A stretch of 64,000 nt of DNA from an uncultured Gammaproteobacteria bacterium (GCA_964349125.1 CAYGFH010000004.1:42921-106920), one strand, 5' to 3'. Positions 40,216 to 59,969 are shown, numbered from the stretch's first letter. Notes: generated by a model from the sequence alone, not told the origin. Numbers and translations are program-made.

Positions 40216-40226
40216 GCTTTACGCGT

Positions 40227-42936: not shown

Positions 42937-42941
42937 AGTTA

Positions 42942-42976
42942 GGTTGTAGGTTGTAGGTTGTAGGTTGTAGGTTGTA
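42942..42976. repeat. Tandem heptamer array (ggttgta)x5, abutting an inverted ctacNNN array at 42981-43010
   Basis: Perfect 7-bp periodicity. Confidence 0.85.
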
Positions 42977-43012
42977 GATATGCCCTACTCTCTACCCGCT
43001 ACCGCCTACGAA

Positions 43013-43273: not shown

Positions 43274-43945
43274 TTATTTCAAGCCGAGGGTGATACGCGC
43301 AGACACTGAGGATGTGAACGGTTCGGCGGAAATACTACTGACACCGTAATCACGGAGATCACTCAGCAACAAATCCATAGCTTGTTTTGATATATGTTCA
43401 GAGAATTGTACCGCAGACACCTTGATTTTTTTCGCATTCCCAGTTGAAATAATTGTGTACCCTTTTATCCGCAGGAGATCTGCCGTTTTTTGCGCTTTCC
43501 CACTTACACCTGAACCGTTGAGCACTTCAATGGTTATGCTTTGCTTATCGACGGGCGCAGTGGAAGGCGTTGGTGTCACTGCAGCTGTTGGCACAGCTGA
43601 AGCCGTAGTCTTTCCTGACTGAAGATACACAGCATAGAGAGAGAGTGAGCATATGACGATGATACCGGTTACACCCATTCCGATCCTATACAACACGGTA
43701 TTTTTCTTTGCTACTTCCGGCTCTGAAGCATCCTGCGCGAGAATTTCACTATATTCAGTACTCGCGCTAGCAGGTTCAGATAGTTTCTCTGTACTATGCG
43801 CCGGTGCAGGAGACAGCGGCTCTGAGGCTTTGTGTTCTACAACAGACGATACGTGCTCTGTTTCATCTTCAAGAGTCGATACCTGAGCTGCCACAGCAAT
43901 ATGAGGAGTCTTTGAATATGATGCACGCTTCTTTTTGACAGGCAT
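43274..43945 (-). CDS. Membrane-anchored LytR_C domain protein (second copy)
   Basis: Charged N-terminal region, TM, C-terminal ITIEVLNGSGVSGKAQKTADLLRIKGYTI...ARITLG. Confidence 0.5.
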   Translation of the reverse strand: MPVKKKRASYSKTPHIAVAAQVSTLEDETEHVSSVVEHKASEPLSPAPAHSTEKLSEPASASTEYSEILAQDASEPEVAKKNTVLYRIGMGVTGIIVICSLSLYAVYLQSGKTTASAVPTAAVTPTPSTAPVDKQSITIEVLNGSGVSGKAQKTADLLRIKGYTIISTGNAKKIKVSAVQFSEHISKQAMDLLLSDLRDYGVSSISAEPFTSSVSARITLGLK

Positions 43946-43950
43946 TTTTT

Positions 43951-44013
43951 TCGCTAACCGCTAACCGCTACTCGCTAAAAGCGATTTACGATTAACGTTT
44001 TGCGTTTAACGAT
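43951..44013. repeat. Heptamer array cgctaac-cgctaac-cgctact-cgctaaa plus gcgatttacgatt core; inverted relative of 33756-33830
   Basis: Shares gcgatttacgatt and the ttagcgg/cgctaac repeats with the 33.8 kb locus in inverted arrangement. Confidence 0.7.
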
Positions 44014-44016: not shown

Positions 44017-44415
44017 TTATGTACCCGGCACGTCATCCCTGGAATGTGCTGCGATAATTTCTTTTACCATCGCAACAATCTGTTTTGGATCATGTTCGCT
44101 TTTCACTATATATTTCACTGCACCTTTCATGAGTGCTGATTCGGCATCTTTTTCACCAGCGAGGTTTGTGAGCATAATGACCGGAATATGTTTAATATCC
44201 GGATCAGCTTTGATTTTCTCCAATACCTGCAGCCCGTTCATTTTTGGCATCATGACGTCCAATAGGACAACCGTCGGCTTCAATGTTCTTACTTTATCCA
44301 GACCCTCTTCCCCATTAGATGCAGTTGCCACTTCATACTTCTCAAACGTAAAAATTTTCTGATACATCCGCTGCATCAGAGGATCATCTTCGACTATTAA
44401 CAATATTTTCCCCAT
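44017..44415 (-). CDS. Stand-alone response-regulator receiver (CheY-like)
   Basis: LLIVEDD...LLDVMMPKMNG...VIMLTN...K pattern (DD, D, T, K). Confidence 0.85.
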   Translation of the reverse strand: MGKILLIVEDDPLMQRMYQKIFTFEKYEVATASNGEEGLDKVRTLKPTVVLLDVMMPKMNGLQVLEKIKADPDIKHIPVIMLTNLAGEKDAESALMKGAVKYIVKSEHDPKQIVAMVKEIIAAHSRDDVPGT

Positions 44416-44486
44416 ATATATCGCCCCTTTCTCATTCTATGTTACTGTGTTTCCGCATAATGCACAATACGAACAACCACTCGTGA

Positions 44487-46046
44487 CTAGTGAACCTGAT
44501 AAATGATATATTTTGCTAGATAGAGCGCGGGAAAGACTGACAGTAACAGGAGCACTGTTGAGGCGAAATATGTGGCCTGAATAGCTTGTGCTAATATCGC
44601 AAACACATCTGCAATCGGACGACCTACGTACATCATGCCAATAGGATTGCCTGTTGAGTTAACAATGGGCTCATACGCCCCCAAGTATTCCGTGGTATTG
44701 TACACGACAAGCCCCTCAAACCGCTTCCCTTCACCCAACACACGACTGATGATTCCAGCATCCGTCTCTCTCATCCCAACGGGTGCATCCGCAGTTCTCA
44801 TAGATGTAACAGAGAGTCGATCACCCGCAAAAAGGCCACCCTCAAGACCCAGTTCTTTTTTTATCCCCTGGGTTACCGCTGTATCCAACGAATATGCCAA
44901 GAGGATTGATCCTATGGTTGAATTTTCCGATACGATAGGCACCGCTGCAAGCATATAGAGCATGTGACTGGAAATTCCAGGTAATGCAACCATTTCACCG
45001 GATTCACCCCCTATTTTCGCCTGCGATACGATGGCTTGGTATACGTTTGCATCAGAAAATATATGTTCACTATCACTACTGACAAGGATCTTTCCTTGCG
45101 CATTTGTCAACAGTAAACCACGAATCCCCCTACTGATGGTATATTTTTCCAAAATCCGGCTTATTTCTGTGTCGTTTCGCTTTTGAATAGCCTGTATGAG
45201 GGCATCGTCCGCTGCTATAAAACGTGCATCGGCTATAGCTTCACGTTTTTTTGACTCAATGCTGAATGAAAATACCTTTACGCTTTGTGTCACCTGATGT
45301 GAAATTTCCAGCAGCAAACTATTCGAGAGGTGATAGACAAAGAATGTTGTAATAATGAAGGTTACCAATGCGACACTCACAGTAGAAATAAATACCACCT
45401 GCATTTCAAAGCTTTTGAGCAGATACCAAAAAACCCATCGAATAAGCACAATAAATCCAAACAGAAGAATTATATGTTCTGCCCACCAGAACAACCCGAA
45501 CGGCCGTATAAGATCCAGTACATATGCAATCTGTGTGCTCGAAAATATACTTTGAATCGCATGTATAATTTCCGCCACAGTAATGATTGAAAACGATATT
45601 GCAGGGAGCAATAAATGCCACTCCAAACCCTCTGCCACATGCGTGAAATACATAACTGCGACGCTCAGTGAACCCACAGGAACTAAGCTCATCACAGCGT
45701 TTTTAAAAGACGTTGTAAATACACTTACTACGGCGTATGATGGCCTTTTTTGTATAGGGTCAAAGGGAAAACTCAAGAAAATGCACAGATACCCGATAAT
45801 CGGCACTATATAATGGAGTATAGATTTCAATGACTCCCCCTCACCCTCAAGCCCGAATAACGGGAGCGTCATACCCTCAAACAATGAGCTGATTGAGAGA
45901 ATGAACAGACCTGCAATACGCAATTTCAGATATGGATGTTTTTTTGTATACGCGTCCAAGTATAGCCAGCCTGCCGCAAAGTATACTACCGCTCCGAACA
46001 GATGTACTGCGTAATGAAATAGAGAGCTATACAATTGATACCACAT
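44487..46046 (-). CDS. Multi-pass membrane sensor: N-terminal ~7 TM, extracytoplasmic double-Cache-like domain, C-terminal TM, no output domain (paralog A)
   Basis: Hydrophobicity pattern. Cache-like YEPIVNSTGNPIGMMYVGRPIADV. Paralogous to 54524-56104. Confidence 0.55.
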   Translation of the reverse strand: MWYQLYSSLFHYAVHLFGAVVYFAAGWLYLDAYTKKHPYLKLRIAGLFILSISSLFEGMTLPLFGLEGEGESLKSILHYIVPIIGYLCIFLSFPFDPIQKRPSYAVVSVFTTSFKNAVMSLVPVGSLSVAVMYFTHVAEGLEWHLLLPAISFSIITVAEIIHAIQSIFSSTQIAYVLDLIRPFGLFWWAEHIILLFGFIVLIRWVFWYLLKSFEMQVVFISTVSVALVTFIITTFFVYHLSNSLLLEISHQVTQSVKVFSFSIESKKREAIADARFIAADDALIQAIQKRNDTEISRILEKYTISRGIRGLLLTNAQGKILVSSDSEHIFSDANVYQAIVSQAKIGGESGEMVALPGISSHMLYMLAAVPIVSENSTIGSILLAYSLDTAVTQGIKKELGLEGGLFAGDRLSVTSMRTADAPVGMRETDAGIISRVLGEGKRFEGLVVYNTTEYLGAYEPIVNSTGNPIGMMYVGRPIADVFAILAQAIQATYFASTVLLLLSVFPALYLAKYIIYQVH

Positions 46047-46068
46047 ACTCTTTAACTGTACATCATTT

Positions 46069-48498
46069 TTATCTATTTTTTACAATATGTTTTGATCTAA
46101 TAGTTAATTGATCCGAAACTCCTACCGCAAGAGGTCCCAGGTGATATCCTACTTCCTGAGCCAACTCTCCATCAGGATCGCCAATCACCTGAATTGTTGT
46201 TCCCATTTCCTGTTTCCATGCTTTTGCGTATGCATCACTTTCATGCGGTAAAACAACCACGATTGCGGATTGTGATTCCTTCACTCGGCGTTCAAGATTT
46301 TCCAGTATCACATGACTGTCAGGCATCCATGAATTCATAACTATCAGCTCTATTTCTTTCCCAACCATCAATTCAGAAATCCGCTCGGTAAATACGCCCG
46401 ACAATCTCTGTCCTACGATATGTTCGTCAGCGTTCCCGAACACATCGGTTCTGATGGGCTGTGCGTGTACCTGATCATGAAAAGGATTACAAAATGTATA
46501 ATTCCACAGCTGTATACACTGAGCTTTTTTCAGTGTAAACGGAACTGAGACAAACGATGCGTGAGGCACTTCAAATGTGTTTGTATCCGTAGCTGTAAAT
46601 CCGTGGGCGCGAGCCTGCAAGCGGTATGAGCCTCTGGGTAATAAATACGAGTAGCATGTACCATCAGTTTTGATCGGATTATTCTGATCAAATGCGGATG
46701 CATTCCAGAGCGAAAATTTTCGTTGCAATGTATCCATGGCATAAACGGAGACACTCGCGAGTTTGAGAGACTCTCCAGACACACAGGAAGAATTCTGGAT
46801 GTCTAGCTGAAATAATTGTTCTACTGCTTTTGGATTCACACGATCATCCATTTCAATAGAAATACCATACTCAGACGGGTCTACCGGCGTAAAATTTGCT
46901 TGCCACATATCGGCTTTAACAGATCGAGTCATGGGAACACGACTGATTTCACGGCCCAGTCTATCAGTAACTATAATAGTAGCTGTTACCACTCCTCCTG
47001 ACGAAGAGACATATATGGTATACGGATAGTGCGTCAATCCACGGATATGCGATATTGAATCGGGTATGAGGGGTATAGCTCCACTCGCTACGACCACTCC
47101 GGCACTTCGGGGCGCAAATCGATCGATAATTACACGCTTTATCGCACTCACCGTGATATTTCCCACCCCATCAGTTGCACGAATTGCGACACCATATTCC
47201 CCTTCTTTTTTGGCATCCAGCGGATCTACGGAAAACTCCACACCATAGTCCGTCACAAGGCTGGGAATCACTCGCCATGTCGTACCGCCATCATAGGTAT
47301 GCTCTACAGTGGCCACTCCCGAGGGATCCAAAACAGTTCCTCTACTGGTAGGCATTGCTTTCATGACCGGTTGAAATGAAGATGCAAAAAGAATCTGAGG
47401 GCCCGCTCCGTCAAGCACGTATGAGCGTGTGTCACTGAGCCCCACATTTCCGGAATAGTCCATAACTTTCATTTGTACCCGATATGTGCCTGAACGTGTC
47501 GCATGTTTCGGGGTAAATGAAAATTCCAGTGGTTTTGAGGACGTGGTCCCAACTCCTGAAATGCGAGTGTATGCTCCACCATTAACCGCGTAGTATATAT
47601 TTTCTATACCTCCTTCATCACTGGTACGAACCCGGATGTTTGGCGAGGTCTTATATGATTCTTGTGCCAATGGGTACAACACGACAACCGGCTCCGTTTT
47701 GTCCGGTATCGGCGTTGGCGTGGGTGTAGCCCCCGGTCCGGATGTTGGGGTTGGCGTAATCGTCGGTGTTGCAGTCGGTTGCGTGGTGCCAGTCACGAGA
47801 AATGAATTATATGAATTTGCGGTATTCCCGGATCCATCCGCGCTATCTATCTGAAAATAGTAAATAGTATCAGCAACCAACCCTGTCGCTGTCAGGGAAT
47901 GCGACCGTGTAAGGGAAGTTGATTCTTTTGTGCTCCCGTATGCATTGGTTGTCCCGTAGCTCAGTATGCCTGTTGCAGCCTCATCGGTATCCCAGTTGAC
48001 CGTAAATGACGTGTTTGTCGTTGAGAGCGATATGTTTGCAATGATGGGTGATGTTGTGTCCGGAGGATCACCTGATACGGTAAACGACAGGTCACCAGTT
48101 GCCGAAAAAAGCGTATCTCCGGCTGCGGAGTCAGATACTTGGACACTCCAAGGGAGCGATGATTGATCTACTGATCCGGACGTAATATCTATCGTCACTT
48201 CAGTTGAGGCACCACTTGCTAATGTCCTGCCCGTTAATATCACATAATCACTATCCCATGCTACCGTCCATCCGGAGCTCACACCTGTTATTGAAATCGC
48301 ATCAGATGGACGCAAAATCTTTATATATCGGACCGTTTGAGCATCTGTGTTGGTAACGGTTATACTCATCTGGAGACTTGAATTTTTTGTTATTGTATTG
48401 TTTGAAAGCGTTGCCGTGGCCGAAGAAATCGCGGCAAAAACGTGGGGTGGTAGACACACGTATATCAATAAAAAAAAGTATCCAATACCCTTTCTCAT
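46069..48498 (-). CDS. Secreted multi-domain protein: FN3/Big-like repeats, PT linker, CarboxypepD_reg-like domain and C-terminal Cys-less thioredoxin-like fold (paralog A)
   Basis: Signal peptide LPPHVFA. FN3-like SFTVNWDTDEAATGILSYGTT. TPTITPTPTSGPGATPTPTPIP linker. Redoxin-like NSWMPDSH where WCxxC is expected. Confidence 0.6.
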   Translation of the reverse strand: MRKGIGYFFLLIYVCLPPHVFAAISSATATLSNNTITKNSSLQMSITVTNTDAQTVRYIKILRPSDAISITGVSSGWTVAWDSDYVILTGRTLASGASTEVTIDITSGSVDQSSLPWSVQVSDSAAGDTLFSATGDLSFTVSGDPPDTTSPIIANISLSTTNTSFTVNWDTDEAATGILSYGTTNAYGSTKESTSLTRSHSLTATGLVADTIYYFQIDSADGSGNTANSYNSFLVTGTTQPTATPTITPTPTSGPGATPTPTPIPDKTEPVVVLYPLAQESYKTSPNIRVRTSDEGGIENIYYAVNGGAYTRISGVGTTSSKPLEFSFTPKHATRSGTYRVQMKVMDYSGNVGLSDTRSYVLDGAGPQILFASSFQPVMKAMPTSRGTVLDPSGVATVEHTYDGGTTWRVIPSLVTDYGVEFSVDPLDAKKEGEYGVAIRATDGVGNITVSAIKRVIIDRFAPRSAGVVVASGAIPLIPDSISHIRGLTHYPYTIYVSSSGGVVTATIIVTDRLGREISRVPMTRSVKADMWQANFTPVDPSEYGISIEMDDRVNPKAVEQLFQLDIQNSSCVSGESLKLASVSVYAMDTLQRKFSLWNASAFDQNNPIKTDGTCYSYLLPRGSYRLQARAHGFTATDTNTFEVPHASFVSVPFTLKKAQCIQLWNYTFCNPFHDQVHAQPIRTDVFGNADEHIVGQRLSGVFTERISELMVGKEIELIVMNSWMPDSHVILENLERRVKESQSAIVVVLPHESDAYAKAWKQEMGTTIQVIGDPDGELAQEVGYHLGPLAVGVSDQLTIRSKHIVKNR

Positions 48499-51400
48499 AC
48501 CTGTTGTTTCTGCACGGGTACAGTAAAGCAGAATTCTGACCCGACACCCTCTTCGGATTTTTCAAGCCAGATACTCCCACCCATGCCTTCAATAATAAGT
48601 CGGGAAATATATAATCCTAACCCTGTACCCTTCGTTGTGTCTCGCGTAAACAGACTGCTTCCCGCCTGCTGAAACTTTCGAAACAGGAGCGTCTGGTTTT
48701 CTTTCGAAATTCCGCGCCCGCTATCAATTACCATCGTCTTAACCAGAGCATCTTTAATAGAAACCTTGACAACTATATCTCCCGTATCAGTAAATTTAAG
48801 TGCGTTACTAATCAAATTGAGTATCACCTGCTTCGTTCGATCCCTATCTGCATAGACAGCAGGGACATCACAGGTATCGTCAAACCGAACAGTCACGTGT
48901 TTTTCCAGCGCAGAACCTTCAAATTCAGCTACAGATTCTCGTATCAGGTCTTTTAGGTCGAACTCGGATTTTTTGAAGTCGATTTTCCCTTGCTCTATGC
49001 GACTGACATTCAAAAAATCATTCACGATATCAATGAGGCGTAAGCTCGAAGCATGGATATCTGTTATCATCTCTTTCAGATCAGGATCAGTGATTTTATC
49101 TCCATAAAAATCAATAATCATAGACGTGTTTCCGCGAATAGCTGTTAGTGGTGTACGCAGTTCATGTGAAGCGATAGAAAAAAATTCATCTTTGCTTCTC
49201 TCCACCATTTTTGATTCCGTTGTATCCTCAAGTACGAACACCTGACCAATGACTTCTGCACTATCACCCTGTGTGATAATCGGAGCGATGAAGAGTCGCA
49301 CCCACCGAGATTGGTACTGCACAGAGGGAAGCTGTTTTGGTTTTTGTGTCTCTGTACACACTGTTGATTCTCCCAGAATATCTATAATTCCCTCGAACGT
49401 TTTGGCCACATCACCGATAGTCAACTGCTCGGCTGTGACGTTGAGCATTTTTCTGGCAATTGCATTTATAAGCACGACTTTTCCTGACACATCCGTCATG
49501 ACAAACCCAAGGGGTAAGTTTCGAATGGATGCCATAAATCTGGCCTGTTCACGCACGAGGTCCTGAGTGCGCTCTTCCACTTGCTTTTCAATTGTTTCTT
49601 TTACCGCTTTGTCTTTTGATATATCGTGAAATGTTGCTAACGCCCCAATGATCTCATCCCCACGTTTCAGTGGTGTGGTTGAGATAGCCACGGGAATTTT
49701 CCCATTTTTTGACTCCAAGTAGTGATTATCTTCCAATCCGTATGAAACGTGTTCCCCATTGTGCAACGTCCTGTACAGTGGCCGCTGATTCTCCGGCAAA
49801 GGCGTATCTGCATTGTAAATGACTGTTATATCGCTGAGTTTTTTGCCCACTATGTCTTCAATCGGTATTCCCACTAATTCAGAAGCCATTGCGTTGGTAA
49901 GTAACACTTTATACTCTTTGTTTACCACGAACAGTCCTTCACTCATGGATGAAATAATTGCCTGTGCCTTATCCCGTTCATCCTTCATCTGCTCTTCCAG
50001 TTTCCGTTCATCCTCGAGGATATTGAGCATTGCGCTTTTTGTTGATTCAAGTTCCCGGTTTTTTTGCTCAATTGCCCTCTCCGTTTCCTTACGTTCTGTG
50101 ATATCATCTCCCGAACTTATGGCAGATATAATATCTCCTTTGCTATTTCGAAGAACGCTGTTATGCCATGCAATAAGTCGAATCGCACCGTTTTTGGTCA
50201 CAACTGAATTTTCAAAGTAATCCTGGAAAACACTCTTTCCTGACATAATGGAAGTAAAGACTGCGCGAGTCGCCTCCTGATCACTTGTTGGAATCGCTTC
50301 AACAAACCAGTCTTTCCCTATAAGCTCTTCTTTTGTCCTCTCTAAAATTTCGCAGGTTCTTTTATTTACCAGAGTTACCTCACCTTGAGGAGATAATGCT
50401 ATAAACATAACTCCAGCTGAATCAATATATTGCTGCATACGATACCGTTCATCTGCAAGTAAATGTTGTCCATACTCCATCGACTGCAACATGGTATTAA
50501 CTGATTTTACTAGTGAAGAAATCTCATCGGATTGTGTATCCTGTGGAATACGCTCACTTACGATGCCCCGTTTACCGAGAGCAACGATTTGGCCGCTCGC
50601 TGTGACAATCCTGTGAAGCACAATCCGATCAAGAATAAACAAAATAATAAACAGCACAACCACACCAATCACACTTCCGAAAACACCGATATAGGTAACG
50701 ACCTGAACGCCTTGTGCATGGATATCACGAGGAAGTTCCATATGAAAATATAACGCAGGTTTGCCGAAGATATCAGATTCGAAATGGTCTGCTTCCAATG
50801 TGTTTATTGACTCAACTTCTGCATAGCTTTCAGTTCCTTTTGCCAGTTCTTTTTTGATATGTTCGGATACGTTTAACGGGTCAATTACTTGTATTTCGAT
50901 TGGCAATCTCACAATTTCGCCAAATTCCTTGGCATATGTTGTTGAAATTTTACGCAGGAAAATCAGGACGCCTCTTGGGGAGCCCTCAGCACTACTCATG
51001 AGGATTGGCCTCGCACTGAGTATGAATGGAATCCCATTATCGACGACAACACCTGTCAGATGATCATGCTGTTCTCCGAGTTTTTCAAACACATCCCGAT
51101 TTGTAGAAAGCGATCGTAAATATGCCGAAACAGACGCGCTAAGTTCTCCTTCGGGGTCGTATCCTTTTGCATACACTACTTTTTCGCCTGGCTTAGCAAA
51201 GATCATTGCATAGATGTTGAGATTTTCGAATGTAAGGTCCTGCAGATTTGATTCGATAAATTCTGTATTCTGATCTTCAATAAACTGATACGCATCATCC
51301 CATGTGGACCAGTCGGACAACTTGACAGACAGATTGTTTTTTTCGACATCAAACGCCTGACTCACCCGTTCCAGATTGACTCGGGTACGATCCATCTCCA

Positions 51401-51524
51401 GTTCATCGAACCGGCTGAGAAATATTGTGGCTGACGCATATATAGCAGTGACTACAATACAAAGGATTCCAGTCCCTATTAACAATAAGCTTTTTGTTCG
51501 TATAGACATATGTACAGGTATCAC
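48495..51524 (-). CDS. Sensor histidine kinase (periplasmic sensor, TM, multiple PAS, HisKA, HATPase_c)
   Basis: HisKA FFSIASHELRTPLTAIRGN; HATPase G-box GTGLGLYISRLIIEGMGGSIW; PAS-like repeats; two TM segments. ORF-track start is a GTG in a GTGA overlap with the upstream stop. Confidence 0.8.
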   Translation of the reverse strand: MIPVHMSIRTKSLLLIGTGILCIVVTAIYASATIFLSRFDELEMDRTRVNLERVSQAFDVEKNNLSVKLSDWSTWDDAYQFIEDQNTEFIESNLQDLTFENLNIYAMIFAKPGEKVVYAKGYDPEGELSASVSAYLRSLSTNRDVFEKLGEQHDHLTGVVVDNGIPFILSARPILMSSAEGSPRGVLIFLRKISTTYAKEFGEIVRLPIEIQVIDPLNVSEHIKKELAKGTESYAEVESINTLEADHFESDIFGKPALYFHMELPRDIHAQGVQVVTYIGVFGSVIGVVVLFIILFILDRIVLHRIVTASGQIVALGKRGIVSERIPQDTQSDEISSLVKSVNTMLQSMEYGQHLLADERYRMQQYIDSAGVMFIALSPQGEVTLVNKRTCEILERTKEELIGKDWFVEAIPTSDQEATRAVFTSIMSGKSVFQDYFENSVVTKNGAIRLIAWHNSVLRNSKGDIISAISSGDDITERKETERAIEQKNRELESTKSAMLNILEDERKLEEQMKDERDKAQAIISSMSEGLFVVNKEYKVLLTNAMASELVGIPIEDIVGKKLSDITVIYNADTPLPENQRPLYRTLHNGEHVSYGLEDNHYLESKNGKIPVAISTTPLKRGDEIIGALATFHDISKDKAVKETIEKQVEERTQDLVREQARFMASIRNLPLGFVMTDVSGKVVLINAIARKMLNVTAEQLTIGDVAKTFEGIIDILGESTVCTETQKPKQLPSVQYQSRWVRLFIAPIITQGDSAEVIGQVFVLEDTTESKMVERSKDEFFSIASHELRTPLTAIRGNTSMIIDFYGDKITDPDLKEMITDIHASSLRLIDIVNDFLNVSRIEQGKIDFKKSEFDLKDLIRESVAEFEGSALEKHVTVRFDDTCDVPAVYADRDRTKQVILNLISNALKFTDTGDIVVKVSIKDALVKTMVIDSGRGISKENQTLLFRKFQQAGSSLFTRDTTKGTGLGLYISRLIIEGMGGSIWLEKSEEGVGSEFCFTVPVQKQQV

Positions 51525-52477
51525 GCTGCGGATGTACTTTTTTTCAACTGTTCAATTTCTTTTTTAAGCTCCACCATTTTGAGCTCCCGACCAATCATAA
51601 GCTTATTCATATCTGCATACTCATTTGATCGCTTCTCAAATTCTTTTGATTTTTCCTCTAACACGCGGGTCCTCTCTCTGACCTTCCCTTCGAGATCGAG
51701 GTATAACATCTGAAGTTTTCCTGCCATTTCGTTAAACGATTCGCCTAATGTTCCGATCTCATCTTGTGATTTCACAGTTACCCGAGTGTCAAATTTTCCC
51801 AGAGCATACTGATTCACCAATTGCGACAACTCTTGAATCGGCCGTGATATAAATACTGAAATAGTATATGCAAAGAGTAGTGTCATACATATGACGAGTA
51901 TAAATATAGAGCAGATCGCCAATATTACCCTATGGATATATGCGTCCGTCTCTCTGAACTTATACAATACTTGCTTGTTCCCATCTACCATCAAGTTCTG
52001 CAATATTTGTGCAGAGCGTATCACATGTTGATCATGTTCGTTTGCATATACCATCTCAGATCCCTGTGTCTTGCCTTTGCGAGTGGTTGAAAAAATATCC
52101 ATCTCCATGTTCCGCAGACTGATTCCTTCCTGAAGAAACTCGTGAAATATCTTTTTTTCTTTATCGTCAAATAAGTTGGTAATATCAGCTATCTGCTGTT
52201 CATACGATAATTTTGTATCCGTATACACGACATCCCACTTTAAGTCTCCTGATGATGCAAATGAGACTGTCACGTCCACCAGCTTGCGATTTAATGCTTC
52301 AAGAGTTGCAATCTTGCGAAGTTTTTTGGATTGTGTGTCAATCTCTTTAACTGTTTGTCGTATCTCTGCGTACGAATACAACACATACAAACCCGTCGCA
52401 AAAAAAACAATCACGATACATACATATCCGAAAAGGATCTTTGATTGAAGTGATAACCGATTTAATATTTGTTTCAT
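51521..52477 (-). CDS. TM-sensor-TM-HAMP protein ending in a coiled coil, no output domain
   Basis: Two TM helices; HAMP-like IQELSQLVNQYALGKFDTRVTVKSQDEIGTLGESFNEMAGKL; C-terminal MNKLMIGRELKMVELKKEIEQLKK. Confidence 0.6.
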   Translation of the reverse strand: MKQILNRLSLQSKILFGYVCIVIVFFATGLYVLYSYAEIRQTVKEIDTQSKKLRKIATLEALNRKLVDVTVSFASSGDLKWDVVYTDTKLSYEQQIADITNLFDDKEKKIFHEFLQEGISLRNMEMDIFSTTRKGKTQGSEMVYANEHDQHVIRSAQILQNLMVDGNKQVLYKFRETDAYIHRVILAICSIFILVICMTLLFAYTISVFISRPIQELSQLVNQYALGKFDTRVTVKSQDEIGTLGESFNEMAGKLQMLYLDLEGKVRERTRVLEEKSKEFEKRSNEYADMNKLMIGRELKMVELKKEIEQLKKSTSAA

Positions 52478-53259
52478 TTAAACCACTTGTCTTGAATCAG
52501 TTGTAATTCTCCTGTCTCTTTCCAATCGGCGATGAGCTGATTTATAACGGGCTGCAAACGACTGGCCGTACTCGGTAGTGCAATTCCATATGACTCAGTG
52601 GTAAATGGAGTACCAACTATCCTGATTCCACCCGCTTTTTTTGCAAGCTCAACTCCCGCAGGATAATCAATAATGATTCCCTGTATTTTTCCGTTTTTGA
52701 GGTCTATTACCGCTTCATCATAGTCCTTATAATCCACAACGCTTTTGGCGTCAGTTAAAACAAGTGCCTGCTCCTTGCTGGTCGTATCTGCCTGCACCCC
52801 GAGACGTTTACCGTTTATGTCAGATATACTTGTAACCCCAGCTACACCCTCCGGAACGATTAACACTTGTCCTGACGCAAAATATGGGTCAGAAAATAGC
52901 ATGCGTTTTTTGCGTTCCGGAGTAATGCTTACAGATGAAATTACGATATCGACCTCCCCTTGTTCGAGCGCGTCAAAAATAGTGTCAAACGGCGTATTTT
53001 TGAGCTGAAGTGTGACGCCAAGTTTGTCGGCGATAAGCCTGGCTATGTCCGGATCATATCCGACGATCGTCCCATCCGGCAATACGCTTTCAAGTGGTGG
53101 GTATGTTGCATCTAATCCCACAACCAATACCCCCGCTTTTTTAATCCGTGCTATTTCGTCTGACCTCCACCCGGATGGGAGTATGCCGCTATAGATCCCC
53201 GTCACAACCACCGCGACTAGTATGACAGCAAGCACAAACGATTTCCAAAGACTACTCAT
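52474..53259 (-). CDS. Periplasmic solute-binding protein family 3 (amino-acid-type SBP)
   Basis: VGLDATYPPLE...GYDPDIARLIADKLGV...TPERKK..FSDPYF pattern. Confidence 0.75.
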   Translation of the reverse strand: MSSLWKSFVLAVILVAVVVTGIYSGILPSGWRSDEIARIKKAGVLVVGLDATYPPLESVLPDGTIVGYDPDIARLIADKLGVTLQLKNTPFDTIFDALEQGEVDIVISSVSITPERKKRMLFSDPYFASGQVLIVPEGVAGVTSISDINGKRLGVQADTTSKEQALVLTDAKSVVDYKDYDEAVIDLKNGKIQGIIIDYPAGVELAKKAGGIRIVGTPFTTESYGIALPSTASRLQPVINQLIADWKETGELQLIQDKWFK

Positions 53260-54521
53260 ACATCCTCCTTTTTTACGTTTTTTAGGGATTCTATTTCTTT
53301 TTTAAGCTCAATCATTTTGAGCTCCCGACCAACCATGAGTGCGTTCATGCGTTCTGTCTCCAGTGCATGTTGCTGCAATTCTTGTTCAATCTTTTTCTGC
53401 TCCGTAATATCCCGAATGATACCAACAATGATTTTCGCGCCCTTTTTATCTGTGTATATCGTTTTCTTTGTCACAATAGTGTGACGCACACCAGAGGCAT
53501 CGGTAAAGAATTCTTCGTTAGTATTTTCTGATTCACTGGCAAACACTTCCTCATCCTTGGCCCAAAACACATCCGCCTCTTCCTTTGGGAAAAAATCATA
53601 GTCAGATTTCCCTATCAACTCATCCCTCTTACGGCCCATAAATGAACACATAGAATCGTTCAGCAATATATATTTGTGTTGTCTGTCTTTCACGAATATC
53701 GGATCAGCCGCGACATTGATAATATTGCCCAGGTATTCTTCTGACTGAACCATACGCGCTTCAATTGCTTTTCGGTCGGATATATTATCTTTTATGGCGG
53801 CAAAATTCACTATCTCACCGGCTTCATTTAACACAGGTGAAATGGTCGCGAACTCCCAGTACATATCGCCATTTTTCTTCTTATTACACAATTCTCCTCG
53901 CCATGTTTTCTTCTGAGAAATCACTGACCATAAATCCGCATATACCGTGATGTCCGTAACGCCGGATTTCAAAATGCGTGGATTTTTCCCCTTCGCTTCA
54001 TCAAGTGTATATCCTGTGGTTTGTGTAAATGCAGGATTTACATATTCAATTACCCCTTGTGGATCCGTCAATACAATAGACGATGGACTCTGTTCGATAA
54101 TATGCTGAAACTTTCGCAGCATTACTTCAGCCTGAGTATTTTCTGCTTCTATCTTCACCTGGTCAGGTACCACACGTGTGTGAATGAGAATTCCATCTAT
54201 ATTGCTCTCCTCCGGGAGATAACGTGCTGTGCTCTCTATCCATTTCCACGATCCATCTTTGAGTTTAAACCGCACGCGAGCTGTATACGGTTTACTTCTG
54301 TACAACTTCCCTTCTGCTATAAGGGAAACCACCCGGGGCAAATCCGCAGGGTGCAGATATTTCAGAATATTTTGATGAACTAATTCTTCTTTGGTATAGC
54401 CTAAAAGAGGCTCAATAGCAGGTGATTCATACAATATCGTGCCATCTTCTTTCATCAGTGTAACCAGATCAACAGAACACTCTACAAATGCTCTGTACAC
54501 TGATTCCGGAAGGGTATCCAT
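53256..54521 (-). CDS. Cytoplasmic triple-PAS protein ending in a coiled coil, no output domain
   Basis: Three PAS-like repeats; C-terminal MNALMVGRELKMIELKKEIESLKN is near-identical to the C-terminus of the HAMP protein. Confidence 0.65.
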   Translation of the reverse strand: MDTLPESVYRAFVECSVDLVTLMKEDGTILYESPAIEPLLGYTKEELVHQNILKYLHPADLPRVVSLIAEGKLYRSKPYTARVRFKLKDGSWKWIESTARYLPEESNIDGILIHTRVVPDQVKIEAENTQAEVMLRKFQHIIEQSPSSIVLTDPQGVIEYVNPAFTQTTGYTLDEAKGKNPRILKSGVTDITVYADLWSVISQKKTWRGELCNKKKNGDMYWEFATISPVLNEAGEIVNFAAIKDNISDRKAIEARMVQSEEYLGNIINVAADPIFVKDRQHKYILLNDSMCSFMGRKRDELIGKSDYDFFPKEEADVFWAKDEEVFASESENTNEEFFTDASGVRHTIVTKKTIYTDKKGAKIIVGIIRDITEQKKIEQELQQHALETERMNALMVGRELKMIELKKEIESLKNVKKEDV

Positions 54522-54523
54522 AG

Positions 54524-56104
54524 TTATAACTGATCAGCAATATATTTTGAAATATAATACGCAGGAAATACACTGCAAACGAGGAGAACTGCCGTTATAA
54601 GGAATGTGTACTGTATGGATGATCCTGCAGCCTGCAGGATGGCACTCTGTGGGCGACCGACAAATAGCATGCCAACGGGGTTATTATCTACATCTTTCAA
54701 GGGTAAAAATGCCGAGGTATACTGCATGCCTCGCATCGGAAGTGTCCCTGCAAACAATTCTCCTTTTTGCAGAACCTGAGTTGTAACAGACGCATGTTCT
54801 TCTTTCATACCTATCACGCGAGTTATACCATCTGGAGAAACGAACGTTGTTGCCGACACGACAGACCCACCATACACAGATGCATCTAATCCTGTGGTTT
54901 TTTTCATACCATCGACAAATGCCATATCAACGCCTTTCCCTACGACAATAACGCCAATAATCGCTTTGTCTGACCCTCGTATCGGAGCTGTTGCCTGTAT
55001 GGTCAAATCCGGTGCAACGACACCATCTTTTGATACGATCGTGGTCTGAGATTCTCCCAACAAGGCGCGTTTCACCACAGAGTCCTGGAGTACCGAGTCA
55101 CCAACACGATCACGATCCTCGCCGCGCGCGAGCACTTGCCCAGACGTGGATACGATCAATGCATGTGTGAATCGTTTCACCAATAATTCATTTGTAATGA
55201 TATCTCCGAGCGACTTTCTGTCGTTGGTTTCGATCGCGGCAACAAGCACCTGGGATGCAGCTATGGATTGTGCGTCCGCAACCAATTGTTCGCGTTGACT
55301 TCCGAGAGCAAAATCCAGTACTTTTACGTCTGTTTCTATCTGACGAAGTGATTCTGCCTCCATATTGGAAAGCAGCAGTCCCGTAAATGACACAGTGGTT
55401 ATAAGAAAAATCGCCAATATCGTCGTGGTATACACCATGAAAAGTTGCGCTTGGAATTGCTTCAACAGATAGCCAAATACCCACTTACACAGGACGACGG
55501 CACTGGCAATCAACAATACAAGTGAGGCAATCCACACAGGTCCAAAGGGAGCAACGAACTGAAATATTCTCACATTCGTACTGGTTTGAAATAGCGATAG
55601 AAGGCCAACGAGTTCACTCAAACTCAAGATAAAGAAGGACCATGCAAGGGGCTTTAAGTGATCCTCAAGCCCCACAGTGGCCCGCTTCAAATATAAAAAT
55701 CCTACGACAGCAGCTCCTATCGGTCCAAGTACGGGAAGCACAGCGGCACGGGCACCAAGGGCAACGAACCCAGAAGCACGAGTATCTGTTGGCACTTCCT
55801 GAATAGGATCCATTAACAATCCCACGATGAGTGCTGAGTATGCGAATACTCTGACTGTTGCTGCTATCAGTGCTGGTGATATACCAAAGAACAGCGGGGC
55901 TGAAATAATTGTTGTTTCAATAACAACAGCCTCAACGATAAACGATACAGATAAAAGAAAAAACCCAAGAAGTTTTACAGTAACTTTATTTTCACGTTTA
56001 GCAAGCCATGCATCATAATACAGCCAGAATACGCCAAAAAAAACGAGCGCTGTAAACAGATTTACAGCGAAATGTATATTCTCTAACAAAAACGGTATCC
56101 ACAT
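54524..56104 (-). CDS. Multi-pass membrane sensor with extracytoplasmic double-Cache-like domain, no output domain (paralog B)
   Basis: Paralog of 44487-46046; Cache-like NNPVGMLFVGRPQSAILQA. Confidence 0.55.
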   Translation of the reverse strand: MWIPFLLENIHFAVNLFTALVFFGVFWLYYDAWLAKRENKVTVKLLGFFLLSVSFIVEAVVIETTIISAPLFFGISPALIAATVRVFAYSALIVGLLMDPIQEVPTDTRASGFVALGARAAVLPVLGPIGAAVVGFLYLKRATVGLEDHLKPLAWSFFILSLSELVGLLSLFQTSTNVRIFQFVAPFGPVWIASLVLLIASAVVLCKWVFGYLLKQFQAQLFMVYTTTILAIFLITTVSFTGLLLSNMEAESLRQIETDVKVLDFALGSQREQLVADAQSIAASQVLVAAIETNDRKSLGDIITNELLVKRFTHALIVSTSGQVLARGEDRDRVGDSVLQDSVVKRALLGESQTTIVSKDGVVAPDLTIQATAPIRGSDKAIIGVIVVGKGVDMAFVDGMKKTTGLDASVYGGSVVSATTFVSPDGITRVIGMKEEHASVTTQVLQKGELFAGTLPMRGMQYTSAFLPLKDVDNNPVGMLFVGRPQSAILQAAGSSIQYTFLITAVLLVCSVFPAYYISKYIADQL

Positions 56105-56127
56105 AGGCAGGATTTATGAGTATGTAG

Positions 56128-56146
56128 GAGGTAGTGAGTAGTCAGT
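56128..56146. repeat. Heptamer array gtaggag-gtagtga-gtagtca-gtag (left inverted repeat of four-helix-bundle cassette)
   Basis: Reverse-complement partner ctactcactactcactact at 56525-56546. Confidence 0.75.
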
Positions 56147-56155
56147 AGATACAAG

Positions 56156-56524
56156 CTACTTTCTAGGTTCCACCACCTGCAATCTCCGTATCAATACATT
56201 TAGCATTTTCATAATTTCTTCTATGCTTTTGTTCAGTGTATCAAATTGATGCGTGTTAATATAGTCAATGCGTTTTGATATGTATAATTGTGTTTCAAAC
56301 TCTGCTCCTGATCCATATGCCATTCGTAAAAAATGAATATACTCATTAGTATGCCCTCTTCTTTGCCCTTCAGCAATATTTGAAGGAATAGAAACGCAAC
56401 TTCTTCGAATCTGCGAAACTAGACCGTATACTTCAGATTTTGGGAACTTATCGGTAATTGCGTAAACAGACACACATAAATCGATTGATTTCTGCCACAC
56501 GATCAATTCTTTATAGCTTTTCAT
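56156..56524 (-). CDS. Four-helix-bundle protein (23S rRNA intervening-sequence protein family) embedded in the signalling operon
   Basis: YKELIVWQKSIDLCVSVYAITDKFP...VSIPSNIAEGQRRGHTNEYIHFLRMAYGSGAEFETQL. ATG 56524 preferred over GTG 56533. Confidence 0.8.
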   Translation of the reverse strand: MKSYKELIVWQKSIDLCVSVYAITDKFPKSEVYGLVSQIRRSCVSIPSNIAEGQRRGHTNEYIHFLRMAYGSGAEFETQLYISKRIDYINTHQFDTLNKSIEEIMKMLNVLIRRLQVVEPRK

Positions 56525-56546
56525 ACTACTCACTACTCACTACTTA
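56525..56546. repeat. Right inverted repeat (actactcactactcactact) of the four-helix-bundle cassette
   Basis: Reverse complement matches the gtagtga array at 56128-56146. Confidence 0.75.
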
Positions 56547-58774
56547 ACTATCTCCTCCAATATTTCTTCTTTTGTCACAAGGCCGGTTATCACGAATTTT
56601 ATTATTCCTTTTCGATCGACGAATATGTGAGTCGGAGAGGTTCTATACATCACAGAATCAACCAATATCCCATCCGGATCAGCTACTATCCGCACATCGT
56701 ATGAGCCGCGTTTCATAAATGTCGCAACTGACGCAGTACTTTCCTGTGGAACAATCACAATAGTATGCACTGAACTCAGCGTTTTCAACGTATCCAAAAT
56801 GGATATCTGTGGAGATGTGATCGGCGACCATGTGTTTAGAAGTGTAATGAGCGTCGGCTTACCACGAAGATCAAGTGATGAAATAAATTTCCCATCAAAT
56901 GGAAAGCGGAAGTACTGCATTTCTTTGCCTATCACACCTGCATTTTTGACACCGCCCGTATCGTTTAACAGACCCGCGACGCGAATGACAGTGCGCGTTT
57001 CTGAAAAATCAAATAACGGTAGTAACCATCGCCCGATTTGAATACCAAACGCCCTCTCCATCTGAATGTTCTGGGCAATCGGTGAAATGTTGTTTACATC
57101 AAATATATCGCTGATTACCGTTTTATACCCAAATGCTTTCACGCGCACATAATATTTCCCGCTGGGAACGGCAAACCCATACTCGCCTGATTTCCCCGTA
57201 CTAAATGGATTTTTTTGTCCGTATGATTTTCCGTCCCACTGTACAAACTGCGCTGTGGCATTGTCCAACACGAACATAGTCACTTCTGCATGTTCAATAG
57301 GCTTTGCATTTGAATCAAGAATCACACCACCGGACAGAACGGAAACTTGCATAACCTCGGTGACGGTTTTGTTTGCGGCGCCATCAATGGCCACACCAAA
57401 GACCGTATAGGTACCAGCCTGATCAAATCGCATTGCCGCACGCCATAGACCTGTATCAATGTTTTTTTGCGCAGTCATATCTGCTACTTCACCCCGACTG
57501 TTTTCTACTGAGTACTTCACGGATACAGGACCACCAATAATTGACGTGGTAAACACATACTCCATTCCCGAAACCACATGCATATTGCCACCGACAGGTT
57601 CAATAACCTGTGAACCGAATGTGACTATGGTGGCACCTACCTGCGGAGGCATGCGATCAACGGTGTAACTGCCGATTTTTTGCGTGGACGTATTGCCTTT
57701 ACCATCAAGGCTTCTGATAACCAACGCATAACTTCCATCGTCGAATTGATATGGCGTAAAAGTGAATGGTATCGACGTCTTACCGAACGCTCGAATGCCA
57801 TCCACCGGTACGAAGTTGATACCACCATCAAGCGAATACTCCAGAGTGGTAACGCCGCTACCGTCTGTCGCGGTACCGACAATCTCCGGCGGTTCTGTAT
57901 AGATTTTTTCGAACTTCGTCTTTATGCTTATCCGAGGACCAACTCTGTCCGGGATCGGTGTGGGCGTAGGGCTCGCGAAAACAATGCGAACTGTTCCTGT
58001 AGTCGTTGTCGTTGTCGTACTTGACGCCGCGTTTGTTACAAACGTGTTTTCTCCGGAATCTCCTGTGTTACCCGCCGCATCCGTACTTTGGACGGAATAG
58101 TGATACGTAGTCAGTGCGGATAGACTGTCTATGGTGACACTATGACTGGTCGTGAGCGATGTATCTGTTTTTGTGGCACCGTAATCTCCGGTCGTCCCGT
58201 ACTGAACGATAGATGTAGCCGCCTCATCTGTCGTCCACATAATGCGCGCACTCGTGGCGCCAATATCAGTGACTGTCAATGAAGATATAGTCGGTGCACT
58301 TGAATCACCACCACCTCCGGTAATGGAAGTCCCTAGTGATCCGGAACAGGACGTCGCATCCGCACCACCCTCATCGGACGATAATTGTATCCCCCAATTA
58401 GCAGCCCCTGCTGTCACATTACCACTTGTCACCTGGATGGAGAATGAATAGGTTTCTCCTGCATCCACACTTCCACCTGTCATGGTCATTGTAGAAGAAT
58501 CAATCGAGTTGCTCCATCCGGGCGAAGATGGGCTTCCTGCAAACGTAAAGTTTCCCGAAGGTACAGTAAGTTTGATCCAAGATCCTGCTTCGGCATTATC
58601 GGTATTATTTGTGACGCTAAACGTTATAGTGTTTGTAGTTTCCGCGGGAACACTATCCATGTCTACTGTTGCACCACAGGACGAGATGGAGGCAAACACT
58701 GTGTGTGGAGTTATTAAAAACAGCGTGGCACAGAAGGCATATACAATCGTATGGGCAATACGTGGCAGTTTCAT
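56540..58774 (-). CDS. Secreted multi-domain protein: FN3/Big-like repeats, CarboxypepD_reg-like domain and C-terminal Cys-less thioredoxin-like fold (paralog B)
   Basis: Signal peptide MKLPRIAHTIVYAFCATLFLITPHTVFA. FN3-like IMWTTDEAATSIVQYGTT. NTWSPITS where WCxxC is expected. ATG 58774 preferred because the 58816 start leaves no divergent promoter space. Confidence 0.6.
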   Translation of the reverse strand: MKLPRIAHTIVYAFCATLFLITPHTVFASISSCGATVDMDSVPAETTNTITFSVTNNTDNAEAGSWIKLTVPSGNFTFAGSPSSPGWSNSIDSSTMTMTGGSVDAGETYSFSIQVTSGNVTAGAANWGIQLSSDEGGADATSCSGSLGTSITGGGGDSSAPTISSLTVTDIGATSARIMWTTDEAATSIVQYGTTGDYGATKTDTSLTTSHSVTIDSLSALTTYHYSVQSTDAAGNTGDSGENTFVTNAASSTTTTTTTGTVRIVFASPTPTPIPDRVGPRISIKTKFEKIYTEPPEIVGTATDGSGVTTLEYSLDGGINFVPVDGIRAFGKTSIPFTFTPYQFDDGSYALVIRSLDGKGNTSTQKIGSYTVDRMPPQVGATIVTFGSQVIEPVGGNMHVVSGMEYVFTTSIIGGPVSVKYSVENSRGEVADMTAQKNIDTGLWRAAMRFDQAGTYTVFGVAIDGAANKTVTEVMQVSVLSGGVILDSNAKPIEHAEVTMFVLDNATAQFVQWDGKSYGQKNPFSTGKSGEYGFAVPSGKYYVRVKAFGYKTVISDIFDVNNISPIAQNIQMERAFGIQIGRWLLPLFDFSETRTVIRVAGLLNDTGGVKNAGVIGKEMQYFRFPFDGKFISSLDLRGKPTLITLLNTWSPITSPQISILDTLKTLSSVHTIVIVPQESTASVATFMKRGSYDVRIVADPDGILVDSVMYRTSPTHIFVDRKGIIKFVITGLVTKEEILEEIVK

Positions 58775-58814
58775 ATATATAATTTTGCTATCCTTCACTA
58801 TAATAGTAGCATTC

Positions 58815-59969
58815 ATGAAACATTACCATAAGGTCATTCTCCTGTGTATATCGCTTGCCGCTGCGCTATGCATAAGCGAATGGTACATCCGTACACAGTA
58901 CCCTCAACTGACACTCGAGGCGGCGCAAAGCTTTAGCTTTAACTGTTTTGAAGAAGGGGAACATCGCTGGATAAAACTTGCGGCCAATAAGACCTGTGAA
59001 CTTAAATCTGCTTGGAATGCATTCCCTCCGATTGCCATACAAACAAATTCCATAGGACTACGAAATCGGGAAGTTTCTATGCCCAAACCCGCAAATACAA
59101 AACGCATTGTCTTTGTCGGTGATTCATTTACCATGGGGTGGGGCGTCAACGAAGAGGACACGTTCGTACGGACATCTGAGACGCTTCTGAACAAACAGGG
59201 ACTGGCATTCCCAATCGAAACGGTTAATGCCGGATTCTCTGCAGCTGGACCCAGCGGCTACTATATATATCTCAAATATTTCGGATTGGATCTGGATCCT
59301 GATGTTGTTGTGGTCGGTTTTTTTATAGGGAATGATATAACGGGAAGAACCGATGTGGAGTGGATACAAAAAGATGCAAACGGCATGCCCGACGTGGTCC
59401 GGTCAAAAACAACGTATATAGATTGGAACGGTGCACTGAGGTTTAAGGATACTCCGATCCGCTACAGCATGCCGGTCCTGAACAATTCCCACGCATTTCT
59501 GCTTTTGGCAAATACAATCAATCCACTCACCACATCAACAGACCCGTCAAAGGAACTGGTGACATTGACCTCGTGTCTATTTAGACCTGAGTGTCATGAT
59601 CTCGATACGGCAAAATCGGAGGTGAAATTTTTGTTTGAGGGCATACAGGAATTGGTCGAGAGTAAAGGAAAAAAACTTGTTGTGGTCATGATCCCGGATG
59701 ATTACCAATTCAATACGTATCCCGCATTCCGAAGTAAAAAATTATTACCGCTTCTCCCATCGGAGAGAATGCATGTCAACAATGAGTTTGCTTCCTTTTT
59801 TGAAAGTGAAGGTATTGACTACATAGATTTGCTGCCAATCTTTCTGGAACAGGCCAAAGAGCAACTATATATTCCTGATGACGGGCATTGGAACGCTGCA
59901 GGACATGCGTTTGCGGCATCTATCATCAGTGAGAAGCTTGCCAAGATACTGCAAGAAAAGGCACCATGA
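58815..59969 (+). CDS. SGNH/GDSL-like hydrolase (AlgX/DltD-like) membrane-anchored protein
   Basis: IVFVGDSFTMGWGV (block I Ser) and DDGHWNAAGH (DxxH block). Start at ATG 58815; the ORF-track start at 58482 overlaps the upstream gene in antisense. Confidence 0.6.
   Translation: MKHYHKVILLCISLAAALCISEWYIRTQYPQLTLEAAQSFSFNCFEEGEHRWIKLAANKTCELKSAWNAFPPIAIQTNSIGLRNREVSMPKPANTKRIVFVGDSFTMGWGVNEEDTFVRTSETLLNKQGLAFPIETVNAGFSAAGPSGYYIYLKYFGLDLDPDVVVVGFFIGNDITGRTDVEWIQKDANGMPDVVRSKTTYIDWNGALRFKDTPIRYSMPVLNNSHAFLLLANTINPLTTSTDPSKELVTLTSCLFRPECHDLDTAKSEVKFLFEGIQELVESKGKKLVVVMIPDDYQFNTYPAFRSKKLLPLLPSERMHVNNEFASFFESEGIDYIDLLPIFLEQAKEQLYIPDDGHWNAAGHAFAASIISEKLAKILQEKAP

Follow-up and report, generated by a model that had tools for sequence, protein, structure and literature searches.

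An intact, elaborated copy of a signalling gene cluster conserved across Patescibacteria

Histidine kinases that depend on accessory proteins are well known, with LuxPQ, TorTS, WalK-YycHI and BceS-BceAB among the described cases. In the sensory rhodopsin II/HtrII pair, an output-less polytopic receptor signals laterally to a transducer that has two transmembrane (TM) helices and a HAMP domain. A row of minus-strand genes at positions 44017-58774 of a 64-kb stretch of DNA (GCA_964349125.1, CAYGFH010000004.1:42921-106920; the whole stretch is called the window below) probably belongs to the same kind of system. The row encodes two secreted immunoglobulin (Ig)/fibronectin type III (FN3) proteins, here called exoproteins A and B, two polytopic Cache-domain membrane proteins (Cache A and Cache B), a histidine kinase, a single-domain receiver and several proteins with sensory modules and no kinase. 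The signalling cluster to which it belongs is conserved throughout the ultrasmall Patescibacteria (the candidate phyla radiation, CPR), and the row is an intact, enlarged version of it. Genome loci of relatives are referred to by L numbers.

In LuxP/LuxQ and TorT/TorS, a partner protein in the periplasm binds the dCache ectodomain of the sensor. In the cluster, too, a putative secreted partner is encoded beside its receptor and co-conserved with it (adjacent in 50 of 57 loci, present somewhere in the locus in 56). A model of the Cache ectodomain matches the LuxQ periplasmic domain (3c38) with a TM-score of 0.67 on the target, and the pairs of a solute-binding protein (SBP) and a TM-HAMP protein found in the loci follow the same logic. 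The partner in this cluster is, however, an Ig/FN3 protein with a cysteine-less thioredoxin fold instead of a periplasmic binding protein, and the Cache protein stands apart from any kinase and has seven extra membrane helices. With sensory rhodopsin II/HtrII the cluster shares a polytopic receptor that lacks a cytoplasmic domain, and the window also encodes a kinase-less HAMP protein with two TM helices. In contrast to that pair, to which there is no relation in sequence or fold, the stimulus domain is a dCache, predicted to be extracellular, and not a retinal pocket, and the TM-HAMP protein occurs in only a subset of loci. Kinases controlled by membrane proteins from the same operon that have extracellular parts include WalK with YycH/YycI or SpdC, BceS with BceAB, and LiaS with LiaF, but the accessory proteins described here are not homologous to these, and conservation in this cluster is higher for the accessory pair than for the input region of the kinase itself.

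The kind of system is therefore known, and what appears to be new is its components: the membrane domain family, the cysteine-less thioredoxin exoprotein, a tail helix shared by kinase-less proteins, and the restriction to Patescibacteria. None of these components matched a curated family, and no description of the module was found in the literature on Patescibacteria or Saccharibacteria with Cache or histidine kinase.

Gene row and conserved core

A scan of one genome per species yielded 62 loci with a full-length Cache gene, the counts resting on tblastn thresholds chosen by the analyst. Adjacency was counted in the 57 loci with enough upstream sequence, and kinases and receivers in the 44 loci of at least 15 kb. 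The loci with informative names come from Gottesman-, Levy-, Davies-, Woese- and Roizmanbacteria, WWE3 and Saccharibacteria. Comparison of the loci delineates an invariant core of four separate proteins: an exoprotein of about 750 amino acids (aa), a Cache protein of about 530 aa, a kinase, and a 132-aa receiver. In the 50 loci with adjacent genes the exoprotein gene lies immediately upstream of the Cache gene on the same strand; among the 44 loci, 35 have an orthologous kinase core and 36 a receiver with an identity of at least 58%. The first-pass annotation had read these genes as a possible multi-subunit sensory complex and had named a lack of co-conservation as a refutation; the counts show that the genes are co-conserved. 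For its further idea of host-derived signals, evidence was found in neither direction. Measured against the window proteins, the receiver has a median identity of 70%, the kinase core 56% and the exoprotein 34-38%; both halves of the Cache protein stand at 43%, ectodomain and membrane domain being equally conserved. Wherever a kinase is present, alignment indicates that its PAS, dimerization and histidine phosphotransfer (DHp) and catalytic core is orthologous and its input region variable. From Microgenomates to WWE3 and Saccharibacteria the link with kinase and receiver is kept, whereas the other neighbours differ.

The core is seen almost bare in two minimal operons. In the Saccharibacteria locus L055, four genes encode the exoprotein, the Cache protein, a HisKA_7TM-PAS kinase without an ectodomain, and the receiver. 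Locus L034 has the same order, but its kinase is a soluble protein of 374 aa with an open reading frame (ORF) that begins within the last part of the Cache gene; the Cache protein is there the sole membrane or extracellular part.

The window elaborates on this core with a duplicated exoprotein/Cache pair, with CHASE4, HAMP and PAS domains on the kinase, and with triple-PAS, anchored SBP and TM-HAMP inputs. Ten complete, head-to-tail ORFs span 14.7 kb of the minus strand from 58774 to 44017:

56540-58774 (-): exoprotein B (FN3_B), 744 aa; fn3/Pur_ac_phosph_N, Big_13, CarboxypepD_reg and Redoxin (Pfam)
56156-56533 (-): IVP, four-helix bundle of the 23S_rRNA_IVP family, 125 aa; PF05635 (E 9e-41) and TIGR02436
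54524-56104 (-): Cache B, 526 aa; dCache_3 (Pfam); the conserved ortholog
53256-54521 (-): triple-PAS protein, 421 aa, soluble, without a kinase; three PAS domains (Pfam)
52474-53259 (-): SBP_bac_3 solute-binding protein, 261 aa, membrane-anchored (Pfam)
51521-52477 (-): TM-HAMP protein, 318 aa, transducer-like, without a kinase (Pfam)
48495-51524 (-): histidine kinase, 1009 aa; CHASE4, PAS, HisKA and HATPase_c (Pfam)
46069-48498 (-): exoprotein A (FN3_A), 809 aa; diverged paralog of exoprotein B
44487-46046 (-): Cache A, 519 aa; diverged paralog of Cache B
44017-44415 (-): CheY-like receiver, single domain, 132 aa; Response_reg (Pfam)

The gene order proposed in the first-pass annotation is confirmed by these intact ORFs, and Pfam agrees with every domain label given there. 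Its description of 4-nt overlaps along the row applies to four of nine junctions (PAS/SBP, SBP/HAMP, HAMP/kinase, where the overlap reads GTGA, and kinase/exoprotein A); the other five have gaps of 2-71 nt. A promoter and terminator scan found no enrichment and no intergenic terminator inside the row, and was uninformative on the limits of the operon. Each exoprotein has one N-terminal hydrophobic segment, the SBP has an anchor, and the HAMP protein and the kinase have two membrane helices each; the PAS protein, the receiver and IVP have no hydrophobic segment. The start of exoprotein B at 58774 coincides with an exact 744-aa database match that begins at M15, and relatives of the exoprotein are 693-770 aa long.

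A relative with a Cache protein 69% identical (L004/L005) has the same row: exoprotein, Cache, PAS, SBP, TM-HAMP, CHASE4 kinase, second exoprotein and second Cache. It differs from the window in that its SBP is of the NMT1 type and its HAMP protein has a dCache_1 ectodomain. The second pair is orthologous to pair A of the window (Cache 56%, exoprotein 38% identity), so both paralog pairs predate the split of the two lineages. That the pair of secreted protein and Cache sensor is duplicated had been noted before, and both partners are indeed full-length paralogs: Cache A and Cache B are 29% identical over their full length (E 2e-80), and exoproteins A and B 22-30%. Exoprotein and Cache genes have been duplicated as a pair, independently, at least three times (the window/L005 lineage, L015/L033 and L028).

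About 20 of the loci stand in third-party assemblies titled 'uncultured Gammaproteobacteria' or 'Pseudomonadales' (L005, L007-L009, L011, L013, L015, L028, L033-L035, L038, L039 and others). These titles look like placeholders or errors and are probably unreliable, because L005 shares the gene order of the window and has a Cache protein at 69% identity.

Architecture of the components

Cache B consists of a polytopic membrane domain (55361-56104), a dCache ectodomain (54629-55357), and a last membrane helix followed by six residues (54527-54628). The dCache_3 match scores 69.5 bits in Cache B and 52.7 bits in Cache A, against a Pfam cutoff of 25.7. The label '7TM' used in the first-pass annotation falls one helix short, as seven helices precede the ectodomain and one follows it. 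Its observation that the Cache sensors have no cytoplasmic output domain stands: the chain stops six residues past the last helix, and the lack of a transmitter domain is family-wide in alignments and profile matches. A signal must therefore leave the protein through membrane contacts or short cytoplasmic loops.

The family is uniform in length. Nearly all of the best 120 of 260 database matches are 520-540 aa long, with 100% query coverage. A profile of the membrane domain alone retrieved 381 cluster representatives among 1.84 billion proteins; the best 150 of these are nearly all 510-560 aa or fragments, and none carries an extra domain. The few longer homologues have low-complexity Pro/Ser/Thr/Ala inserts in one loop. 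Judged by the homologues found, this is a family of fixed length, about 530 aa, restricted to metagenome-assembled genomes (MAGs) of Patescibacteria.

The membrane domain resembles nothing described in the collections searched. Against Pfam at E≤1 it gave only STING_TM (E 0.095, noise), it had no match in NCBIfam, and a model of it (predicted local distance difference test, pLDDT, 79) found only generic helical bundles when compared with the PDB by Foldseek (best E 0.17, TM-scores ≤0.45). HisKA_7TM and other described polytopic sensor domains were accordingly rejected as identities for the Cache N-terminus, since no profile or fold matched. Invariant polar residues of the domain are H11, Y29, D31, Y138, E147, H149 and Y212, and conservation peaks between helices 4 and 5, in the stretch YL[KR]RATxGLExHLKP. 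This loop reads YLKRATVGLEDHLKP in Cache B (55649-55693) and YFTHVAEGLEWHLLL in Cache A (45606-45650), where the family's invariant residues are retained. An outward-facing Cache domain is consistent with the charges of the C-terminus and of loops 4 and 6 but not with those of loop 1, and Pro/Ser/Thr-rich inserts in loop 3 suggest that loop 3 is outside. On the basis of these charges and inserts the conserved loop is predicted to be cytoplasmic, provided that the Cache domain is outside.

The AlphaFold2 (AF2) model of the ectodomain (pLDDT 82.9) has two PAS-like modules and a long stalk helix, with helices at residues 217-282 and 486-525. Foldseek matches it to the dCache domains of LuxQ, Tlp3, DctB and KinD.

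Exoprotein B comprises a signal peptide (58691-58774), an Ig-like domain, an FN3 domain (58034-58297), a Pro/Thr-rich linker, Big_13 Ig repeats, a CarboxypepD_reg domain and a thioredoxin-fold domain (56543-56896). Exoprotein A likewise has a signal peptide and ends in a degenerate thioredoxin-like domain (46072-46431). The thioredoxin-like domains had been overlooked in the first-pass annotation. The Redoxin match in exoprotein B scores 32.9 bits against a cutoff of 26.6, that in exoprotein A falls under the thresholds, the L055 homologue matches AhpC-TSA at 46.7 bits, and there are weak matches to ResA and StoA. The domain is thus of the same fold family as TlpA, ResA and StoA, but both active-site cysteines are replaced in the exoproteins. 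The CxxC position reads W-S-P-I-T in exoprotein B (56807-56836), W-M-P-D-S in exoprotein A, and W-[S/A/L]-P-x-[S/T] in 59 of 59 aligned exoproteins, with cysteine at neither position, which excludes thiol redox chemistry. The redox-dead fold would serve another purpose, presumably binding. Pfam showed no protease domain in the exoprotein, and none of 49 exoprotein matches was fused to a Cache protein.

The exoprotein A ortholog of L005 (18607-20751) lacks FN3, its alignment skipping from the N-terminal Ig domain to the Pro/Thr linker, and FN3 is therefore dispensable in this paralog. At the 5' end of exoprotein B, a mechanically called 495-aa ORF of an SGNH/AlgX-like protein (58482-59969, +) overlaps the gene. 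The likely true start of the SGNH/AlgX-like gene is MKHYHK at 58815, leaving a divergent, AT-rich intergenic region of only 40 nt.

The kinase is laid out as a TM helix, a CHASE4 ectodomain (50892-51356), a second TM helix, a HAMP-like segment, PAS domains and a HisKA-HATPase_c core (48510-49193; HisKA 61.7 bits, HATPase_c 84.9 bits). CHASE4 is another feature that had gone unremarked. The H-box, SHELRTPL, spans residues 786-793 (49146-49169). Top scores of the core are to PnpS/WalK/PhoR-type models, and the DHp helix region is near-invariant across loci (ERSKDEFFSIASHELRTPLTAIRGNT...). Input regions vary: they are polytopic in 16 kinases, consist of two helices and an ectodomain in about 18, and are absent in 8.

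The receiver matches Response_reg at 98.3 bits, and D10, D11, D53 (within 44245-44265), T82 and K104 can be read from its sequence. Pfam finds a single domain in its 132 aa and no output domain. The 64-kb window encodes no other receiver, and the gene row no DNA-binding regulator.

The SBP, HAMP and PAS modules are separate polypeptides, as had been proposed, each a complete ORF with no kinase attached. The TM-HAMP protein has a TM helix, an ectodomain of about 140 aa, a second TM helix, a HAMP domain (51710-51850), a signalling helix and a C-terminal helix. This last helix is shared with the PAS protein. The two end in a common 23-residue helix, MNxLMxGRELKMxELKKEIExLK, not recognised before; it reads MNALMVGRELKMIELKKEIESLK in the PAS protein (53280-53348) and MNKLMIGRELKMVELKKEIEQLK in the TM-HAMP protein (51542-51610). 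A relaxed form of the motif occurs 19 times in the window and the loci. All 19 occurrences are terminal, 5-18 residues from the stop, and the proteins that carry it are kinase-less PAS, HAMP or CHASE4 proteins.

A search for fused versions in relatives connects these proteins to the kinase. A stand-alone CHASE4-HAMP-PAS protein of 527 aa from a Gottesmanbacteria MAG is colinear with kinase residues 6-500 (32% identity, E 2e-83), the window kinase being the fused form of the same protein. The alignment reaches the start of the tail of the 527-aa protein, and where the tail sits the fused kinase has its inter-PAS linker AMLNILEDERKLEEQ (49977-50033). Through this colinearity of split and fused forms, the kinase-less proteins are linked functionally to the kinase, and its placement makes the tail a predicted connector helix that would work in trans when the proteins are separate. 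The tail was also considered as a degenerate H-box (GRELKM versus SHELRT), a reading that found no support, as hhalign aligned only the PAS-end motif DITExK (probability 54%) and not the tail. A database search with a 48-aa tail gave no useful information, its sole matches being seven short fragments; a string search of the literature for the motif returned nothing relevant.

Other loci carry a changing set of such inputs, including PAS, CHASE4, FIST, TM-HAMP and solute-binding proteins, and from lineage to lineage the TM-HAMP proteins have neighbours from five solute-binding families. The Cache gene is followed directly by a kinase in 12 loci and by a receiver in another 12; in 8 the next gene encodes a kinase-less CHASE4, PAS or HAMP protein, and in 2 it belongs to a second pair. 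When 10 of 13 'unknown' next genes were scanned, 8 proved to be sensor modules (NMT1 three times, Phosphonate-bd, SBP_bac_1, FIST, CHASE4 and dCache_1).

Proposed mechanism and competing explanations

With a probability of roughly 0.6, the row encodes a non-covalently assembled sensor kinase, whose contacts, signalling direction and output we infer as follows. The exoprotein would bind the Cache ectodomain as in the LuxP/LuxQ pair. The resulting change would run along both helices flanking the ectodomain into the membrane bundle and the cytoplasmic loop YL[KR]RATxGLExH, and this loop would make non-covalent contact with the core of the kinase or with the receiver. Kinase-less inputs might reach the same kinase by their common C-terminal helix. 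The kinase would then phosphorylate the receiver, which would act on some protein partner. Such a system would be both unusual and testable, combining a receptor without a transmitter, an obligate secreted partner whose thioredoxin fold is disabled, a receiver without an output domain and a predicted docking helix shared by interchangeable inputs.

Several observations weigh against this assembly. The exoprotein gene lies away from the Cache gene in 7 of 57 loci, and an orthologous kinase is missing within 10 kb in 9 of 44. Loop 1 has four Lys/Arg residues, which conflicts with a Cache-outside orientation and leaves helices 1-3 ambiguous. Since the window kinase has its own CHASE4 ectodomain, it has no strict need of a co-sensor. 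The conservation of the Cache ectodomain is easier to reconcile with a constant partner than with an environmental ligand that varies, and it agrees equally well with a scheme in which signalling runs the other way.

That reversed scheme is the main rival, possible though the less probable of the two. In it, variable inputs would feed the kinase, the phosphorylated receiver would bind the cytoplasmic loop of the Cache protein, and the ectodomain would be the output, capturing or releasing the exoprotein at the cell surface and so regulating surface properties or attachment. LapD/LapG offers a model, as LapD is a membrane protein whose periplasmic Cache-like domain binds a secreted protein; LapD, however, has HAMP, GGDEF and EAL domains and binds cyclic di-GMP, whereas the Cache proteins have no such domains, and LapG is a protease. 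The scheme would account for a conserved set of kinase core, receiver, Cache and exoprotein beside inputs that vary widely, for ectodomain conservation equal to that of the membrane domain, and for a receiver with no output domain in a row with no DNA-binding regulator. The 12 loci with the receiver gene straight after the Cache gene, mostly in Saccharibacteria and with the kinase elsewhere, also suit it, as do the many kinases with ectodomains or accessory sensors of their own. Against it, the kinase of a minimal operon has no other access to the outside, so that the Cache protein is more naturally read as a sensor; the solved structural relatives of the ectodomain are all input domains; and binding of the receiver to the loop is unsupported by evidence.

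It is rather doubtful that the exoprotein/Cache pair has an envelope function of its own, such as adhesion, maintenance of the wall or surface layer, or something transport-like, and is merely co-transcribed or co-regulated with an ordinary two-component system. The invariant polar residues H11, D31, E147 and H149 could form an active or metal-binding site, the exoprotein is made of adhesin-like Ig domains, and surface-glycan genes flank the row (SGNH/AlgX-like, GT2-methyltransferases, carbamoyltransferase and LytR_C). The persistent linkage to kinase and receiver across lineages in which other neighbours change nevertheless argues for a signalling role, as does the gene right after Cache, which is usually a signalling gene, and the membrane domain matches no enzyme or transporter fold.

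The weakest explanation, raised as a caveat in the first-pass annotation, is that the row is the wreck of one or two big conventional sensor kinases, broken by frameshifts, sequencing errors or pseudogenisation; domains of these kinds are normally fused into one kinase, and the related contig L003 has frameshifted genes and an apparent Cache-PAS fusion, but the idea is highly improbable and, as far as sequence evidence allows, refuted, because all ten ORFs are complete with their own starts and with a signal peptide or membrane helix (or encode complete soluble proteins), their lengths are kept in hundreds of homologues across phylum-level lineages, the paralogs are merely 29-30% identical yet intact and are both retained in a relative, and the identical split layout recurs in independent assemblies.

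L003 itself (JGI contig Ga0393997_0029197, 4906 bp) comes from a relative that is 73% identical, and its Cache, PAS and CHASE4 genes are frameshifted. The PAS protein stands immediately before the CHASE4 kinase, and the SBP and HAMP genes do not lie between them. The Cache-PAS fusion protein (P0008) was not counted as real, given the visibly frameshifted genes on this 4.9-kb contig.

A large share of bacterial diversity belongs to Patescibacteria, whose cells live attached to other microbes, and some Saccharibacteria can now be manipulated genetically. Histidine kinases are scarce among Patescibacteria, at 0.29 per 100 genes overall and 0.16 in Microgenomatia (PMC10805038). With few kinases per genome, a cluster conserved from Microgenomates to Saccharibacteria likely governs something central. 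More tentatively, and as a conjecture that is rather unlikely to hold in every part, the exoprotein, the eight-helix Cache receptor, the kinase core and the receiver might together be the principal, often nearly the sole, signalling device of Patescibacteria, a non-covalent sensor kinase with sensors interchangeable through a common docking helix that reports on or controls the cell surface through which these episymbionts meet their hosts. The cluster also offers a natural example of sensor, transducer and kinase in split and fused forms among close relatives.

Inserted and flanking genes

The IVP gene between exoprotein B and Cache B (PF05635 138.9 bits, TIGR02436 135 bits) is an insertion and lies outside the conserved module. 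At the exoprotein/Cache junction it is absent from the closest relatives, L005 and L006, and present in the more distant L011, L022 and L039 (at most 58% identity, in L022), a distribution that suggests recurrent insertion at this junction or repeated loss. An identity as Avd of diversity-generating retroelements was rejected on score (bAvd 32.9 bits against a cutoff of 40, DivGenRetAVD 34.2 against 80), with no search made for a reverse transcriptase. The window has three 23S_rRNA_IVP genes, all on the minus strand (56156-56533, 38227-38583 and 21516-21836).

Perfect or near-perfect heptamer tandem repeats lie just upstream of successive minus-strand gene starts, with a heptamer that differs from gene to gene:

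42940-42977: CAACCTA x5.4, ends 4 nt before the ATG of the carbamoyltransferase gene
43952-43978: GTTAGCG x3.9, ends 7 nt before the LytR_C gene
40192-40229: AAGCGTA x5.3, about 90-120 nt upstream of the G6PD gene
56525-56544: GAGTAGT x2.9, covers the stop of exoprotein B and the start of IVP

Downstream of the receiver, the carbamoyltransferase gene is flanked by two genes for LytR_C-like membrane proteins:

43274-43945 (-): LytR_C-domain membrane protein, 223 aa, often the downstream neighbour of the receiver
40227-40967 (-): LytR_C-like membrane protein, with a weak match (E 0.009)

Several relatives also have a LytR_C gene after that of the receiver, and the protein encoded at 43274-43945 possibly belongs to the module. 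At the far end of the window, plus-strand genes between 48 and 3989 encode a dockerin-like domain (48-1127) and a cohesin-like domain (2775-3989), which suggests a surface assembly of the cohesin-dockerin type in the small genome from which the window comes.

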